Positions 1 through 4,298 of a stretch of 4,298 nucleotides of DNA are shown here, in pieces. Position 1 is the first letter of the stretch. Every line of letters starts with the position of its first letter. Origin of the DNA: a virus (Duplodnaviria > Heunggongvirae > Uroviricota > Caudoviricetes); IMG/VR virus record IMGVR_UViG_2630968808_000006; one strand, written 5' to 3'. Position numbers and translations under genes: made by a program. The notes under the pieces are model-generated. The model saw nothing but the letters and a program-made list of their open reading frames with translations. It ran no database searches and was not told where the DNA came from.

Positions 1-615
1 GTGAGCGAAATTAATTACCAGGCACTGCGTGAAAAGGCAGAAAAAGCAACGAGTGGTGTGTGGTCGCTCGAATATGGAGATGGCCGATTTGATGGTGATG
101 ATGCACTAATTCATCGCGAGGCTGCTGGATATATTCCCATTTGCAGAATTGAAGGAGCGCATCCTGAAAGCGGTTTCGATGAAGATTTCCAAATAGAACA
201 GCAGGCCAATGCTGAATTCATCGCCGCAGCCAATCCGGCTACCGTGCTGGCACTACTGGATGAACGGGAAAGAAACCAGCAATACATCAAACGCCGCGAC
301 CAGGAGAACGAGGATATTGCGCTAACGGTAGGGAAGCTGCGTGTTGAGCTGGAAGCAGCAGAGAACAACCTTATTGATAGTGAATGCCATGTTGCTGAAC
401 TGGAAGAAGCGCTACGCGATAAGCAGGCGTTACTTGAAGCCTCAGAAAAGCGCATAGCAGAACTGGAAGCGCGGGAAATACTGCTCCCGGAACGTAGCAG
501 CATGCTTCATCGAACAGATTTTCACGAGGATTATCAAACGGTAATGGCATACAAAGTTTCTGAAGTCATCGCTGCAATCCGCGCCGCAGGCATTCGCATC
601 AAAGAAGGTGAGTAA
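1..615 (+). CDS. ea22: Ea22-like early-left accessory protein (204 aa) with a central coiled-coil
   Basis: ORF opens with GTG at window position 1 and translates MSEINYQALRE...; central block LLDERERNQQYIKRRDQENEDIALTVGKLRVELE and C-terminal AGIRIK.GE match what I recall of lambda Ea22; heptad-like E/A/L-rich centre; sits upstream of xis/int as in lambdoid phages. Start coincides with the window edge, so the true N-terminus could lie upstream. Confidence 0.8.
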   Translation: MSEINYQALREKAEKATSGVWSLEYGDGRFDGDDALIHREAAGYIPICRIEGAHPESGFDEDFQIEQQANAEFIAAANPATVLALLDERERNQQYIKRRDQENEDIALTVGKLRVELEAAENNLIDSECHVAELEEALRDKQALLEASEKRIAELEAREILLPERSSMLHRTDFHEDYQTVMAYKVSEVIAAIRAAGIRIKEGE

Positions 616-791
616 TGCGTGTGGCATGTATCGGCTTGTTACCGTACCCGACTCGTTTTTGGGCTTCTGCGCTAATTGCAAAGCCACATATCCTGATGGC
701 TGACAACATCATCCCGGCACCAAAGCGCCGCCGTACCGGTATTGCAGCGGCACGACGTGCAGCAAAGAAACGCAGGAGAGCAAAACGATGA
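615..791 (+). CDS. small hypothetical protein (58 aa) with a strongly basic Arg/Lys C-terminal tail
   Basis: Not in the supplied ORF track (below its length cutoff); read by hand: ATG at 615 overlaps the ea22 stop (TAATG) and its TGA stop at 789-791 overlaps the next ATG (ATGA). Translation MRVACIGLLPYPTRFWASALIAKPHILMADNIIPAPKRRRTGIAAARRAAKKRRRAKR. GGTGA Shine-Dalgarno-like motif a few nt upstream. Support is overlap geometry only. Confidence 0.4.
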   Translation: MRVACIGLLPYPTRFWASALIAKPHILMADNIIPAPKRRRTGIAAARRAAKKRRRAKR

Positions 792-979
792 AAAACCGTA
801 AAGCAAAGATGCTTATTTCCCGTATATACAGCCGTTGCTATCCCAGCCAGTGGTTGAGAGTTAGCAATCGCCGTATGGTGTTGTACTTATATTCTGGAAT
901 TGCCAGAGAGGGAATCAAAGATAAGCCCAGCGCAGCGCAAAACCGCTGGAAAAACCACTTGCGCACTAAAGGAGAGTAA
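788..979 (+). CDS. hypothetical basic protein (63 aa)
   Basis: ATG at 788 preceded by AGGAGAG (771-780) with about 9 nt spacing; start overlaps the upstream stop (ATGA); its TAA stop (977-979) is 1 nt from the next start. No recognisable domain. Confidence 0.4.
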   Translation: MKNRKAKMLISRIYSRCYPSQWLRVSNRRMVLYLYSGIAREGIKDKPSAAQNRWKNHLRTKGE

Positions 980-980
980 T

Positions 981-1199
981 GTGCCAACATTATTCAGAAA
1001 AGAATATCCGCGAAGAAGTCGAATAACAGAACTCCTGTTTCTCATTCTGTTTATCGTGTTGATGATACCGATATCCCCGCTAATTTTTGTCTGGGCAATC
1101 GGGAAAATAATTGAGCCAGTTATTGAATTGTATAACGACGTGGTATGGGCGTCGTTCAACACTCTGCACAATAAAATTAATCCATATAAGGAAAACTGA
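981..1199 (+). CDS. small single-pass membrane protein (72 aa from the GTG start)
   Basis: GTG at 981 lies 6 nt after GGAG (971-974), in frame with track ORF 900..1199, whose 5' part overlaps the previous ORF in another frame. Product begins (M)PTLFRKEYPRRSR, followed by one hydrophobic stretch LLFLILFIVLMIPISPLIFVWAIG and a ~30-aa polar tail. By hand count about 38% GC versus about 50% in ea22, with rare codons ATA, AGA and CGA. Confidence 0.5.
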   Translation: MPTLFRKEYPRRSRITELLFLILFIVLMIPISPLIFVWAIGKIIEPVIELYNDVVWASFNTLHNKINPYKEN

Positions 1200-1200
1200 A

Positions 1201-1623
1201 ATGACCACCATTACCAGAGAAAGCGCGGAGATTAAATCATTCATCACTGGCTTCCTGAGCGACCCGGCGCACGATAACCAATCATCAAACAGTCTGTTTG
1301 CTGATGTGTTTCGTATCGCGCTGGCCTCGCTGGAAGCAGAACCAGTTGCATGGACTGATGACGAGGAACTGCGAGATGTTGAGCAAATTGGTTTAGGTTA
1401 TTTATTACCTTGTCCTCCAGATAAATACGCAGACCCGCGTCGTGTAATTCCGCTGTATCGTGTGCCGCCAGCTCCCATAGTGCAGGCACAGGGAATTGAG
1501 ATCGCAATAAACGAACTGGTGTCTCTGTCCCCACAGCTGGATAAACGAGCGGTGGAAACTCTTTCTATGGCTGTGGCACATCTACGTAAACTGGTTAAGA
1601 AGCAGTTGCAGGTTAAGGAATGA
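1201..1623 (+). CDS. hypothetical protein (140 aa); N-terminal domain paralogous to that of the next ORF
   Basis: ATG at 1201 preceded by AAGGAA (1188-1193) with 7 nt spacing and placed 1 nt after the upstream stop; the track's longer form from 1111 would overlap the previous gene and lacks an RBS. Shares RIALASLEAEPVA and VIP(L/V)Y..AP motifs with ORF 1627..2475. Confidence 0.65.
   Translation: MTTITRESAEIKSFITGFLSDPAHDNQSSNSLFADVFRIALASLEAEPVAWTDDEELRDVEQIGLGYLLPCPPDKYADPRRVIPLYRVPPAPIVQAQGIEIAINELVSLSPQLDKRAVETLSMAVAHLRKLVKKQLQVKE
1312..1353 (+). repeat. copy 1 of a 42-nt in-frame direct repeat encoding RIALASLEAEPVAW
   Basis: CGTATCGCGCTGGCCTCGCTGGAAGCAGAACCAGTTGCATGG; about 33/42 nt identical to 1717..1758, with most differences at codon third positions. 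Confidence 0.7.
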
Positions 1624-1626
1624 CAC

Positions 1627-2475
1627 ATGAACGCTATCACCAAAGAACGTATTGAATTGTTCATTAAAAATCCGCTTGATAACGGGCTTACCCGTGGCGA
1701 ACAAATGGAACTGGCACGAATTGCACTGGCATCACTGGAAGCAGAGCCAGTTGCTTATATTTTCAAACATCCGGCCGGAAAATTATTCTGGGCTTTGACG
1801 GATGAAAGCAATAAAGATCAATCGGACGTTATTCCTGTTTATGCTGCCGCGCCTGCGTCGGTTGTGCCGGATAATGCATCAGAGCCTCTTGCTTATGCTT
1901 ACAAAGAGCTTACGCCTGAGATTATGCGCAACCATTTAGCTGTATTCGAGCGATATGGAATAGCACCAAACGATAGCTCTACCACAATTCAGGCACTGCG
2001 AATCGCGCTGGATGGCATAGAGCGGAGCGACGCCATGCTTCATGGTGCCGAAACTGTAAGCCAAACTTACAAGTTGCCAGTTAATACACCTTGCCAAGAT
2101 GCGCCAGCCCATATCTGGCTGCAAACGGCTGGAGTATGGCCAGAAGATGGCGAGTTAAGCGAATTAACGTGGTGCAGCCACAATCAGCACCATGATGACA
2201 CGCTATATGTTCGAGCTGACCTTGTGAATGGCAACTCTCCGGTAACTACGGATGGTTGGATAAGCTGTAGTGAGAGAATGCCTGAAAAGAACCAGAACGT
2301 GCTTATTTCGGTGAATTTCGATAGTGATCTGGTTGAGCCGCTAATATGCTCCGCACGCTATACCGGAAGTACATTCCGGCGTGGAGGTGTAACGGTTATG
2401 CCAGGTAATGGTATTGAGCAAGCAACTCACTGGATGCCGCTACCGGAACCGCCGCAGGAGGTAAACCGTGGCTAA
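1627..2475 (+). CDS. prophage protein (282 aa) with a DUF551-like C-terminal domain (Eaa-type)
   Basis: ATG at 1627 preceded by AAGGAA (1615-1620). C-terminus DGWISCSERMPEKNQNVLISV...ATHWMPLPEPP resembles the W...P...THWMPLPEPP signature I associate with DUF551 enterobacterial prophage proteins (recalled, not searched). N-terminal domain is paralogous to ORF 1201..1623. Confidence 0.75.
   Translation: MNAITKERIELFIKNPLDNGLTRGEQMELARIALASLEAEPVAYIFKHPAGKLFWALTDESNKDQSDVIPVYAAAPASVVPDNASEPLAYAYKELTPEIMRNHLAVFERYGIAPNDSSTTIQALRIALDGIERSDAMLHGAETVSQTYKLPVNTPCQDAPAHIWLQTAGVWPEDGELSELTWCSHNQHHDDTLYVRADLVNGNSPVTTDGWISCSERMPEKNQNVLISVNFDSDLVEPLICSARYTGSTFRRGGVTVMPGNGIEQATHWMPLPEPPQEVNRG
1717..1758 (+). 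repeat. copy 2 of the 42-nt in-frame direct repeat encoding RIALASLEAEPVAY
   Basis: CGAATTGCACTGGCATCACTGGAAGCAGAGCCAGTTGCTTAT, 405 nt downstream of copy 1; a partial third copy CGAATCGCGCTGG at 1999-2011 encodes RIALDGIE within the same gene. Confidence 0.7.
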
Positions 2476-2752
2476 CCTGCAACTTGCTGTCAAAGGTGAA
2501 TACTTCGATGCCATGATTCGCGGGGAGAAAACGGAAGAGTATCGCCTGTGTAATGACTACTGGAAAAAGCGCCTCGTTAACCGTAAGTATGACCGCCTGA
2601 TTATCACAAAGGGATATCCGAAGCGCGACGATTCCAGCCGTAGAATTGATGTTCCGTATGACGGATATGAAATCAAGACAATCACACATCCGCACTTCGG
2701 CGATAAACCGGTAAAGGTGTTCGCGATAAAGGTGAATATCAGCAATGAATAA
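2468..2752 (+). CDS. 94-aa ASCH/PUA-like (DUF3850-like) small protein in the slot lambda uses for ea8.5
   Basis: GTG at 2468 preceded by AGGAGG (2456-2461) with 6 nt spacing; overlaps the upstream stop by 8 nt (GTGGCTAA). N-terminus LQLAVKGEYFDAMIRGEKTEEYR fits the ASCH-type pattern (L.L....YF.A...G.KT.E.R). Only one Cys, so probably not the zinc-binding lambda Ea8.5 fold. Confidence 0.65.
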   Translation: MANLQLAVKGEYFDAMIRGEKTEEYRLCNDYWKKRLVNRKYDRLIITKGYPKRDDSSRRIDVPYDGYEIKTITHPHFGDKPVKVFAIKVNISNE

Positions 2753-2785
2753 CAATCCTCGCACTCGCGGGGATTTCTTTTATCT

Positions 2786-2812
2786 GAACTCGCTACGGCG
2801 GGTTTTGTTTTA
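2786..2812 (+). terminator. weak hairpin plus U-rich tract after the 94-aa ORF (possible attenuator)
   Basis: CTCGC (2789-2793), loop TACG, GCGGG (2798-2802) with one G-U pair, followed by TTTTGTTTTAT. Short stem, interrupted T-run. Confidence 0.2.
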
Positions 2813-2824
2813 TGGAGATGATAA

Positions 2825-2992
2825 ATGCACTTCCGAGTCACAGGTGAATGGAATGGAGAGCCATTCAACAGAGTTATCGAAGCAGAGGACATCAACGACT
2901 GCTATAACCACTGGATGATATGGGCGCAGATAGCGCATGCAGACGTAACCAATATTCGAATTGAAGAACTGAAAGAACACCAAGCCGCCTGA
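2825..2992 (+). CDS. 55-aa hypothetical protein, positional equivalent of the small ORF between ea8.5 and xis in lambda
   Basis: Not in the ORF track (below its length cutoff); read by hand: ATG at 2825 is 7 nt after GGAG (2814-2817); translation MHFRVTGEWNGEPFNRVIEAEDINDCYNHWMIWAQIAHADVTNIRIEELKEHQAA; TGA stop (2990-2992) lies in the loop of the terminator hairpin. Distance to xis and int matches my recollection of the lambda map. Confidence 0.55.
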   Translation: MHFRVTGEWNGEPFNRVIEAEDINDCYNHWMIWAQIAHADVTNIRIEELKEHQAA

Positions 2993-3004
2993 TGGCGGTT
3001 TTTT
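2982..3004 (+). terminator. Rho-independent terminator (GC stem, UGAU loop, T6 tail)
   Basis: GCCGCC (2984-2989), loop TGAT (2990-2993), GGCGG (2994-2998) giving 5 G-C pairs plus flanking G-U and A-U pairs, followed by six T (2999-3004). On the minus strand the stem is followed by non-T sequence, so it is + strand specific. Confidence 0.6.
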
Positions 3005-3005
3005 C

Positions 3006-3045
3006 TTGCGTGTAATTGCGGAGACTTTGCGATGTACTTAACACT
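3006..3045 (+). promoter_or_regulatory. cII-activated pI-type promoter: TTGC-N6-TTGC box flanking the -35, with the -10 and start point inside the first codons of xis
   Basis: TTGC (3006-3009), GTGTAA, TTGC (3016-3019) is the tetranucleotide direct repeat recognised by lambda CII at pRE, pI and paQ; it lies about 13-26 nt upstream of the xis ATG (3032), matching the lambda pI arrangement. The -10 hexamer is not unambiguous (candidates TGTACT or TACTTA around 3033-3040). Confidence 0.6.
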
Positions 3046-3250
3046 TCAGGAGTGGAACGCACGCCAGCGGCGCCCAAGAAGCCTTGAAACAGTTCGTCGA
3101 TGGGTACGCGAGTGCAGGATATTCCCTCCTCCGGTTAAGGATGGAAGAGAGTATCTGTTCCACGAATCAGCGGTAAAGGTTGACTTAAATCGACCAGTAA
3201 CAGGTAGCCTTTTGAAGAGGATCAGAAATGGGAAGAAGGCGAAGTCATGA
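3032..3250 (+). CDS. xis: excisionase Xis (72 aa), lambda type
   Basis: ATG at 3032 is 8 nt after GGAG (3020-3023); product MYLTLQEWNARQRRPRSLETVRRWVRECRIFPPPVKDGREYLFHESAVKVDLNRPVTGSLLKRIRNGKKAKS matches lambda Xis as I recall it; overlaps int by 23 nt as in lambda. Confidence 0.95.
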   Translation: MYLTLQEWNARQRRPRSLETVRRWVRECRIFPPPVKDGREYLFHESAVKVDLNRPVTGSLLKRIRNGKKAKS

Positions 3251-4298
3251 GCGCCGGGATTTACCCCCTAACCTTTATATAAGAAACAATGGATATTACT
3301 GCTACAGGGACCCAAGGACGGGTAAAGAGTTTGGATTAGGCCGAGACAGGCGAATCGCAATCACTGAAGCTATACAGGCCAACATTGAGTTATTTTCAGG
3401 ACACAAACACAAGCCTCTGACAGCGAGAATCAACAGTGATAATTCTGTTACGTTACATTCATGGCTTGATCGCTACGAAAAAATCCTCGCCAGCAGAGGA
3501 ATCAAGCAGAAGACACTCATAAATTACATGAGCAAAATTAAAGCAATAAGGAGGGGTCTGCCTGATGCTCCACTTGAAGACATCACCACAAAAGAAATTG
3601 CGGCAATGCTCAATGGATACATAGACGAGGGCAAGGCGGCGTCAGCCAAGTTAATCAGATCAACACTGAGCGATGCATTCCGAGAGGCAATAGCTGAAGG
3701 CCATATAACAACAAACCCGGTCGCTGCCACTCGCGCAGCAAAATCAGAGGTAAGGAGATCAAGACTTACGGCTGACGAATACCTGAAAATTTATCAAGCA
3801 GCAGAATCATCACCATGTTGGCTTAGACTTGCAATGGAACTGGCTGTTGTTACCGGGCAGCGAGTTGGTGATTTATGCGAAATGAAGTGGTCTGATATCA
3901 TAGATGGCTATCTTTATGTCGAGCAAAGCAAAACCGGCGTAAAAATTGCCATCCCAACAACATTGCATGTTGATGCTCTTGGGATATCAATGAAGGAAAC
4001 ACTTGATAAATGCAAAGAGATTCTTGGCGGAGAAACCATAATTGCATCTACTCGTCGTGAACCGCTTTCATCCGGCACAGTATCAAGGTATTTTATGCGC
4101 GCACGAAAAGCATCAGGTCTTTCCTTCGAAGGGGATCCGCCTACCTTTCACGAGTTGCGCAGTTTGTCTGCAAGACTCTATGAGAAGCAGATAAGCGATA
4201 AGTTTGCTCAACATCTTCTCGGGCATAAGTCGGACACCATGGCATCACAGTATCGTGATGACAGAGGCAGGGAGTGGGACAAAATTGAAATCAAATAA
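3228..4298 (+). CDS. int: tyrosine site-specific integrase Int (356 aa), lambda type
   Basis: N-terminal arm-binding region MGRRRSHERRDLPPNLYIRNNGYYCYRDPRTGKEFGLG; catalytic residues at lambda Int positions: R in VTGQRVGDL (R212), H308-x-x-R311 in TFHELRSL, H333 and Y342 in LLGHKSDTMASQY (positions counted from the translation). GAGG RBS 7 nt upstream. Complete ORF ending TAA at 4296-4298. Confidence 0.97.
   Translation: MGRRRSHERRDLPPNLYIRNNGYYCYRDPRTGKEFGLGRDRRIAITEAIQANIELFSGHKHKPLTARINSDNSVTLHSWLDRYEKILASRGIKQKTLINYMSKIKAIRRGLPDAPLEDITTKEIAAMLNGYIDEGKAASAKLIRSTLSDAFREAIAEGHITTNPVAATRAAKSEVRRSRLTADEYLKIYQAAESSPCWLRLAMELAVVTGQRVGDLCEMKWSDIIDGYLYVEQSKTGVKIAIPTTLHVDALGISMKETLDKCKEILGGETIIASTRREPLSSGTVSRYFMRARKASGLSFEGDPPTFHELRSLSARLYEKQISDKFAQHLLGHKSDTMASQYRDDRGREWDKIEIK

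Follow-up and report, generated by a model that had tools for sequence, protein, structure and literature searches.

A predicted minimal ASCH-fold protein at the ea8.5 position of the exo-xis operon in a lambda-like prophage

Comparison with characterised ASCH proteins is central to interpreting the small phage gene described here, a 94-aa open reading frame that we call ORF94. A 2026 preprint reported in-vitro removal of N4-acetylcytidine (ac4C) from E. coli tRNA for 19 of 19 ASCH proteins tested, a set that included no phage protein and nothing so small from the ORF94 subfamily (bioRxiv 10.64898/2026.02.27.708502). In the Glu-type (GKER) subgroup, the Lys and Glu of the characteristic octapeptide are essential in TthASCH (PDB 2DP9), human EOLA1 and the TRIP4 ASCH domain, and TthASCH uses Y14, K23, E26 and R28 (bioRxiv 10.64898/2026.02.27.708502). 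ORF94 resembles this subgroup in carrying GxKxxExR with Glu and, nine positions N-terminal to the Lys, an aromatic residue, so spaced that Y12/K21/E24/R26 matches Y14/K23/E26/R28 of TthASCH. Unlike the subgroup, it is only 94 aa long, replaces the helical inserts of larger ASCH proteins with a 9-residue loop (THPHFGDKP), falls below the threshold of Pfam PF04266, is phage-borne, and has invariant residues of its own (W32, R35, GYP 49-51, D55, H74 and F77). E. coli YqfB (PDB 9KYF, 9KYH), which is annotated as N(4)-acetylcytidine amidohydrolase, is chromosomal and combines Thr24 (GKTR) with Glu74 from a helical insert, whereas ORF94 has no such insert. Zymomonas mobilis ZmASCH (PDB 5GUQ), a single-stranded-RNA ribonuclease, has about 145 aa with extra elements. 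Also among the closest proteins is Enterococcus faecalis NP_814290.1 (PDB 3IUW, ~80 aa, deposited as "activating signal cointegrator"), which shares 15-20% identity with ORF94 and which we take to be a DUF3850-type minimal ASCH protein.

The second point of comparison is positional. The sequence-only reading had placed ORF94 where lambda has ea8.5 and had described Ea8.5 as homeodomain/zinc-finger-like; this description was accurate, since lambda Ea8.5 matches PDB 2M7A/2M7B in a search of PDB sequences and its fold has been described as a hybrid homeodomain/zinc-finger (PMC8614690). We analysed a window of 4,298 nt, the whole stretch of DNA available to us, in which every sizeable ORF supported by database matches is on the + strand. 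Followed in transcriptional order, the window represents the distal part of a lambdoid prophage's leftward early (pL, "exo-xis") operon. Its features, with families assigned by Pfam and PHROG profile searches, are as follows.

1-615, + strand: Ead/Ea22-like gene (Pfam E=5e-35)
615-791, + strand: orf58, a small ORF
788-979, + strand: orf63, a small ORF
981-1199, + strand: DUF4014 gene (Pfam)
1201-1623, + strand: orf140, an ORF
1627-2475, + strand: orf282, with a C-terminal DUF551 domain (E=6e-22), upstream of ORF94 and translationally coupled to it
2456-2461, + strand: Shine-Dalgarno sequence AGGAGG, six bases before the ORF94 GTG
2468-2475, + strand: 8-nt overlap of the orf282 end and the ORF94 start, GTGGCTAA
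2468-2752, + strand: ORF94, a 94-aa protein with a phrog_625 match and a predicted structure of minimal ASCH fold
2522-2545, + strand: codons 19-26 of ORF94, octapeptide GEKTEEYR (ASCH GxKxxExR)
2754-2775 and 2786-2805, + strand: two tandem hairpins, each followed by a U-run (folding, z = -4.3)
2825-2992, + strand: 55-aa ORF, orf55, 96% identical to lambda lambdap35
3032-3250, + strand: xis (Pfam Exc, E=4e-41)
3228-4298, + strand: int, a lambda-type integrase
615-2748, + strand: non-lambda cassette of six ORFs (orf58, orf63, DUF4014, orf140, orf282, ORF94), in place of lambda 29846-29361
2749-4298, + strand: lambda-type DNA with orf55, xis and int, 98% identical to lambda 29361-27812

In a blastn comparison, the only similarity to lambda outside the orf55-xis-int segment consisted of short patches within ea22. 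The break in homology falls at the ORF94 stop codon (base 2749), and lambda ea8.5 occupies 29374-29655; because lambda homology starts at that stop codon, ORF94 sits exactly in the place of ea8.5. The order downstream agrees, as lambda orf55 (lambdap35) lies between ea8.5 and xis and the 55-aa ORF of the window is placed likewise, so that orf55 and then xis follow in both. ORF94 and ea8.5 are thus alike in directly preceding orf55-xis-int in the pL operon and in length (94 vs 93 aa), and unlike in fold and sequence: a predicted beta-barrel with one Cys stands against a homeodomain/zinc-finger (2M7A), and BLASTP of ORF94 against Ea8.5 gave no alignment at E<=100. ORF94 is not a relative of Ea8.5. 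A search of PDB sequences with ORF94 did not match 2M7A or 2M7B, and its composition (one Cys, two His) provides no set of zinc ligands, as had been supposed from the single Cys; C28 also lies outside the conserved columns of the ORF94 family.

A gene replacement had been proposed at this slot. The slot does hold non-lambda DNA, but the unit exchanged is larger than one gene: since homology begins inside the ORF94 stop codon, it is a 2.1-kb non-lambda cassette (~615-2748, six ORFs) that replaces the ea8.5 segment, standing for ~0.49 kb of lambda. Directly 3' of the ORF94 stop and inside the lambda-derived sequence, the tandem hairpins at 2754-2805 are terminator-like by predicted folding. Coordinates of lambda tL3, sought as a possible match to these hairpins, were not found in the literature, and an Rfam scan gave no match.

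ORF94 is a real gene under purifying selection, with a median dN/dS of 0.13 over 1803 ortholog pairs. The list of open reading frames gives it as 2468..2752 (+), 94 aa, with a GTG start, and the start lies inside the 3' end of orf282, whose TAA stop, ending at 2475, spans ORF94 codons 2-3. The protein matches phrog_625, a phage family of unknown function, over its full length (E=7e-51, residues 1-93 vs profile 1-93 of 98), and 814 clusters at 50% identity match it at E<=1e-3. We compared 80 IMG/VR loci with a 91-100% identical product, which collapse to 67 distinct contexts: at the start position, 39 of these have GTG and 28 have ATG, and L4 and L6 are conserved across the family. In most contexts the upstream ORF (>=60 codons) terminates within ORF94, by 8 nt in 46 of the 67 and by 1 nt in 11, while in 8 it stops 4 nt short. 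Several distinct upstream sequences precede the gene, with GGAGG in every common variant. Because the 8-nt overlap and GGAGG recur with differing upstream sequences, RTGGCTAAC (RTG-GCT-AAC, in which TAA ends the upstream frame) is a conserved module boundary and is not unique to this window; the earlier suggestion that the overlap couples ORF94 translationally to its cassette is borne out by the same recurrence. Gene order and lambda homology suggest that ORF94 closes a mosaic accessory cassette within a lambda-like prophage's leftward early (exo-xis / ea) operon, is probably made through translational coupling to the DUF551 gene, and is followed by the terminator-like hairpins.

The ASCH assignment is harder to reach from sequence. 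Pfam ASCH (PF04266) matched ORF94 with E=0.057 over residues 6-29 only, and its 14.6 bits did not reach the gathering score of 21.2; DUF3850 (PF12961) gave no match at E<=1, so that the Pfam search proposed as a check on the ASCH/DUF3850 idea produced nothing above threshold. Among 50 diverse relatives, ASCH was found at E<=0.01 in 4 and DUF3850 in 2, and one stray match aside, the weak Pfam matches of relatives are to these two families only; one 200-aa relative matches DUF3850 at E=0.007, below the cut-off. No match was returned by an NCBIfam scan of ORF94. PDB sequences searched with ORF94 and a 50-sequence family profile yielded no ASCH chain and chance matches only (a designed knot protein, a xylosidase and ribosomal protein L15). 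Aligned by hhalign with a shallow YqfB profile (120 matches listed, all 83-99% identical), the ORF94 family gave a probability of 0.8% over 15 columns, placing ORF94 12-26 on YqfB 12-26. The ORF94 subfamily therefore lies outside the reach of the Pfam ASCH and DUF3850 models. The sequence-only reading had said that a lack of ASCH similarity in profile searches would count against it, and the sequence-level searches came close to that outcome.

Structure prediction gave a different picture. The AlphaFold2 model of ORF94 (pLDDT 88.4, pTM 0.76, 101-sequence alignment) has the order b1-a1-b2-a2-b3-b4-b5-b6, and the top 15 Foldseek matches in the PDB are all deposited or published as ASCH-type, with YTH domains next; the best E-value is 1.4e-2. 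In a second structure comparison ASCH entries again came first, followed later by PH1033 (5.5), PF0470 (5.3), the YTH domain of YTHDC2 (5.3) and the VcaM4I EVE-HNH enzyme (5.2), then by two further ASCH entries and ZmASCH. Structural neighbours in BFVD outside the ORF94 family are viral proteins named ASCH or DUF3850. The octapeptide G19-E-K21-T-E-E24-Y-R26 is located at the a1/b2 junction of the model, and across 222 relatives it is nearly fixed: G19 in 95%, K21 in 222/222 (100%), E24 in 221/222 (99.5%) and R26 in 218/222 (98%). Other near-invariant positions in the same relatives are aromatic 12 (99%), W32 (99.5%), Y50 (98.6%), H74 (94%) and F/W77 (100%). Of the original ASCH/PUA-like proposal, then, the predicted fold, the Foldseek matches and GxKxxExR speak in favour, while the Pfam score and the hhalign probability do not. 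We consider it very probable that ORF94 has the ASCH fold, and, on the strength of the model, its family is a divergent, minimal ASCH-fold family missed by current Pfam models. The ASCH label for ORF94 thus rests on fold and an eight-residue motif, with no sequence model at threshold.

The gene is widespread. It is present in 1537 of 5426 complete E. coli genomes (28%), with up to 5 copies each, whereas lambda ea8.5 is found in 246 of the 5426 (4.5%), in all cases at >=99% identity. In close relatives, a DUF551 gene lies directly upstream with the 8-nt overlap or is one small gene away, and in many loci orf55 follows at +357 downstream, then differing xis/int types. An identical ORF94 copy is carried by a different prophage beside sbcB in E. 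coli C4. An obligate partnership with DUF551 was rejected, given that the RTGGCTAAC junction joins ORF94 to differing upstream sequences, that a small ORF intervenes in many loci and that distant relatives are found without DUF551. When ORFs within 4 kb were clustered at 78 GTDB loci (other Proteobacteria, 49-87% identity), an integrase was the one neighbour to recur: in 26 of the 78 it lies on the ORF94 strand, ~1-1.4 kb downstream; YqaJ occurred in 4, and no fixed partner gene of the family was found in the 78. The one example checked, a Polaromonas prophage, has the same ORF94-integrase layout. Members of the family are carried by temperate phages and also by a jumbo Erwinia phage and by virulent Jerseyvirus phages, in which the gene opens a small-gene block.

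Our best overall explanation, held with moderate confidence and rated only slightly better than even, is that ORF94 would be an ASCH-type, nucleotide- or RNA-directed amidohydrolase serving as an optional phage accessory. Within the PUA-like beta-barrel superfamily it would belong to the ASCH branch, as a minimal protein made up of this domain alone. The protein probably binds nucleic acid or nucleotide, and it may do so by accepting a nucleotide or a flipped-out RNA base, with tRNA as the most plausible target. We infer a single pocket formed by the b1-a1-b2 octapeptide (G19-x-K21-x-x-E24-x-R26) together with aromatic residue 12, to which W32, R35, G49-Y50-P51, D55, H74 and F77 may add; eight nearly invariant polar or aromatic residues within 94 aa would argue for such a defined pocket over generic binding. 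K21 and E24 could then be the catalytic pair hydrolysing an exocyclic N-acyl group, in the manner of the N4-acetylcytidine amidohydrolase/deacetylase enzymes. We suggest activity of this type because the Lys-Glu pair that is essential in characterised ASCH enzymes is retained, but a catalytic amidohydrolase of the ac4C type is a tentative proposal that we judge doubtful on balance. The role would be an optional accessory function exerted on host or phage nucleic-acid modification, and because virulent phages carry the family too, it would not be tied to lysogeny.

Several observations weigh against the amidohydrolase reading. The family does not have the helical insert that bears YqfB Glu74 and has invariant residues of its own, so its substrate may differ from ac4C; no conserved partner gene at the 78 loci points to a pathway; and no sequence-profile method gave a significant result for membership among the ASCH enzymes. 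To our knowledge, ac4C in E. coli is confined to one tRNA, and we know of no benefit that a phage would gain from its removal.

The alternative that survives best, though we regard it as somewhat unlikely, is that ORF94 is a non-catalytic reader or binder of RNA or of a modified base and serves, as other exo-xis proteins do, as a small regulatory protein in translation, in RNA processing or in the choice between lysis and lysogeny. RNA binding is the classical prediction for ASCH and PUA domains, and the YTH and EVE neighbours from the structure comparison are readers (PMC7641849). ORF94 is basic (pI 9.35; family median 9.4), and the Cys-rich, zinc-ribbon-like C-terminal tails of several relatives suggest extra binding surfaces. 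Exo-xis genes are described as affecting lysogenisation and induction in two reports (PMC3824215, PMC7093339), yet the presence of the family in strictly virulent phages makes a lysogeny-specific role unlikely. The near-absolute conservation of Lys21 and Glu24, both of which are essential in the tested ASCH enzymes, also goes beyond what a generic binder would need.

Rather improbable, in our estimation, is a role in DNA modification or anti-restriction, in which the barrel would recognise a (possibly modified) DNA base and ORF94 would aid a phage DNA-modifying enzyme or block host restriction. ASCH-like barrels that act on DNA bases have been reported or predicted (PMC7641849), another case being the model of the BapA 5hmC glycosylase. 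In the Acidovorax phages Alfacinha1 and Alfacinha3 the ORF94 domain is fused to a PAPS-reductase (PP-loop) domain and adjoins a cytosine methyltransferase, but these two phages are nearly identical, the sister phage Acica is without the fusion, and no other was found among 50,697 phage records; a functional link to PAPS reductase, its fusion limited to these two phages, is therefore a weak lead. At 5 of the 78 genomic loci a C5-methyltransferase gene is encoded within 4 kb, a rare linkage in a survey where no partner was ever conserved, and a BFVD structural neighbour is named "Restriction alleviation protein", though this is an unverified automatic label. PADLOC was negative as well, with no family at E<=0.01 for ORF94 or the neighbours tested, although its library consists of defence rather than anti-defence models. 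Finally, that ORF94 is an unrelated small beta-barrel whose ASCH resemblance is due to convergence or chance would fit the sub-threshold result of every sequence-profile test and a top Foldseek E-value of a mere 1.4e-2, but is very improbable given that ASCH entries rank first in two independent structure comparison methods, that the eight-residue signature is invariant and occupies the equivalent point of the fold (following helix 1 and entering strand 2), and that the relatives' weak Pfam matches point almost wholly to ASCH and DUF3850.

Returning to the amidohydrolase reading, a further extension is that proteins of the ORF94 type would be phage erasers of an RNA or DNA base modification, used early in infection to reprogramme decoding or to evade a host response that depends on modification. 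An example target might be N4-acetylcytidine at the wobble base of the host elongator tRNA-Met, or another N-acyl mark. The basis of this idea is the invariant Lys-Glu pair, the in-vitro deacetylation of tRNA by all ASCH proteins tested and the location of the gene in early operons, and its scope would extend to many temperate and virulent proteobacterial phages; we consider it quite unlikely as it stands.

As an annotation, the ASCH call is not new. RefSeq WP_038977008.1, identical to ORF94, is named "ASCH domain-containing protein", as are near-identical proteins, and phiV10 gp54 bears the same name; an ASCH protein is also discussed in a Jerseyvirus genome paper (PMC11803447). Because RefSeq and phage genome papers already label the protein in this way, the call adds nothing to public annotation, and ORF94 is an ordinary, already annotated accessory gene. 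Its frequency, 28% vs 4.5% of complete E. coli genomes, shows instead that the slot filled by ea8.5 in textbook lambda is very commonly occupied by the ORF94 gene, and hence that in the exo-xis region it is lambda which is atypical. The ac4C amidohydrolase activity of ASCH proteins offers a cheap and direct test for this abundant phage protein, which, if the proposal is true, would be the first phage-encoded RNA-modification eraser of the ac4C type.

Among the relatives of ORF94, the 94-aa minimal ASCH-fold protein in the ea8.5 slot, gp49 of Acidovorax phage Alfacinha3 (locus L002, 5001-6380) joins an ORF94-like domain (residues 1-92) to a PAPS-reductase/PP-loop domain (residues 99-365, E=7e-27), and a cytosine methyltransferase is encoded two genes upstream. 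This fusion was found only in Alfacinha1 and Alfacinha3, and the sister phage Acica carries the PAPS-reductase part alone, without the ORF94-like domain. Family members P0130, P0172, P0177, P0188 and P0249, which belong to different lineages, bear Cys-rich C-terminal extensions (CxxC...CxxC) that look like zinc ribbons. The 168-aa protein A0A8S5UN54, a structural neighbour of ORF94 in the viral structure collection BFVD, bears the label "Restriction alleviation protein".

The two genes upstream of ORF94, orf140 (1201-1623, + strand) and orf282 (1627-2475, + strand), have an N-terminal module in common (32% identity over 114 aa, E=2e-7), within which RIALASLEAEPVA is identical in both, and each of them matches phrog_660 and phrog_60. 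This suggests either that part of a gene was duplicated in tandem or that modules were shuffled. A 72-aa DUF4014 protein (981-1199, + strand) matches phrog_1832 (E=9e-45); the PHROG annotation of this family, "released from the phage upon host infection", is odd for an early-left accessory gene.

On both strands of the window (1-4298), sites resembling sigma-70 promoters were depleted (1 vs 6.9 +/- 2.6 in shuffles), which is consistent with a long operon whose promoter lies far off, and terminator-like sites were enriched (10 vs 4.5 +/- 2.2 in shuffles). Hairpins just after ORF94 and at the end of orf55, the 55-aa ORF between ORF94 and xis, are as follows:

2754-2775 and 2786-2805, + strand: a tandem pair of GC-rich hairpins, with a U-run after each (RNA fold)
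2982-3001, + strand: terminator-like hairpin, GCCGCC..GGCGG followed by a T-run (window sequence)

The tandem pair (-26.4 kcal/mol, z = -4.3 by RNA folding) begins two bases after the ORF94 stop in the window sequence and lies within lambda-derived DNA, corresponding to approximately lambda 29356-29305 in the ea8.5/orf55 interval; it may correspond to one of the leftward terminators known in lambda, possibly tL3. The hairpin at 2982-3001 overlaps the orf55 stop, with xis just beyond.

Copies of ORF94 with 90-92% identity are present without any annotated feature in the RefSeq record of HK022 (NC_002166.1, 22711-22992), and likewise in many records of Stx-converting phages (LC744181, LC616xxx). 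In phage HK106 (NC_019768.1), the region between ea22 and xis, which matches the window, holds an annotated queuine tRNA-ribosyltransferase gene together with a DUF4752 gene, the former being further nucleic-acid-modification cargo of this slot. Among 5426 complete E. coli genomes, ORF94 occurs in 1537 (80-100% identity) and lambda ea8.5 in only 246, all copies being at least 99% identical; relative to ORF94, ea8.5 appears to be of recent origin and narrow distribution.
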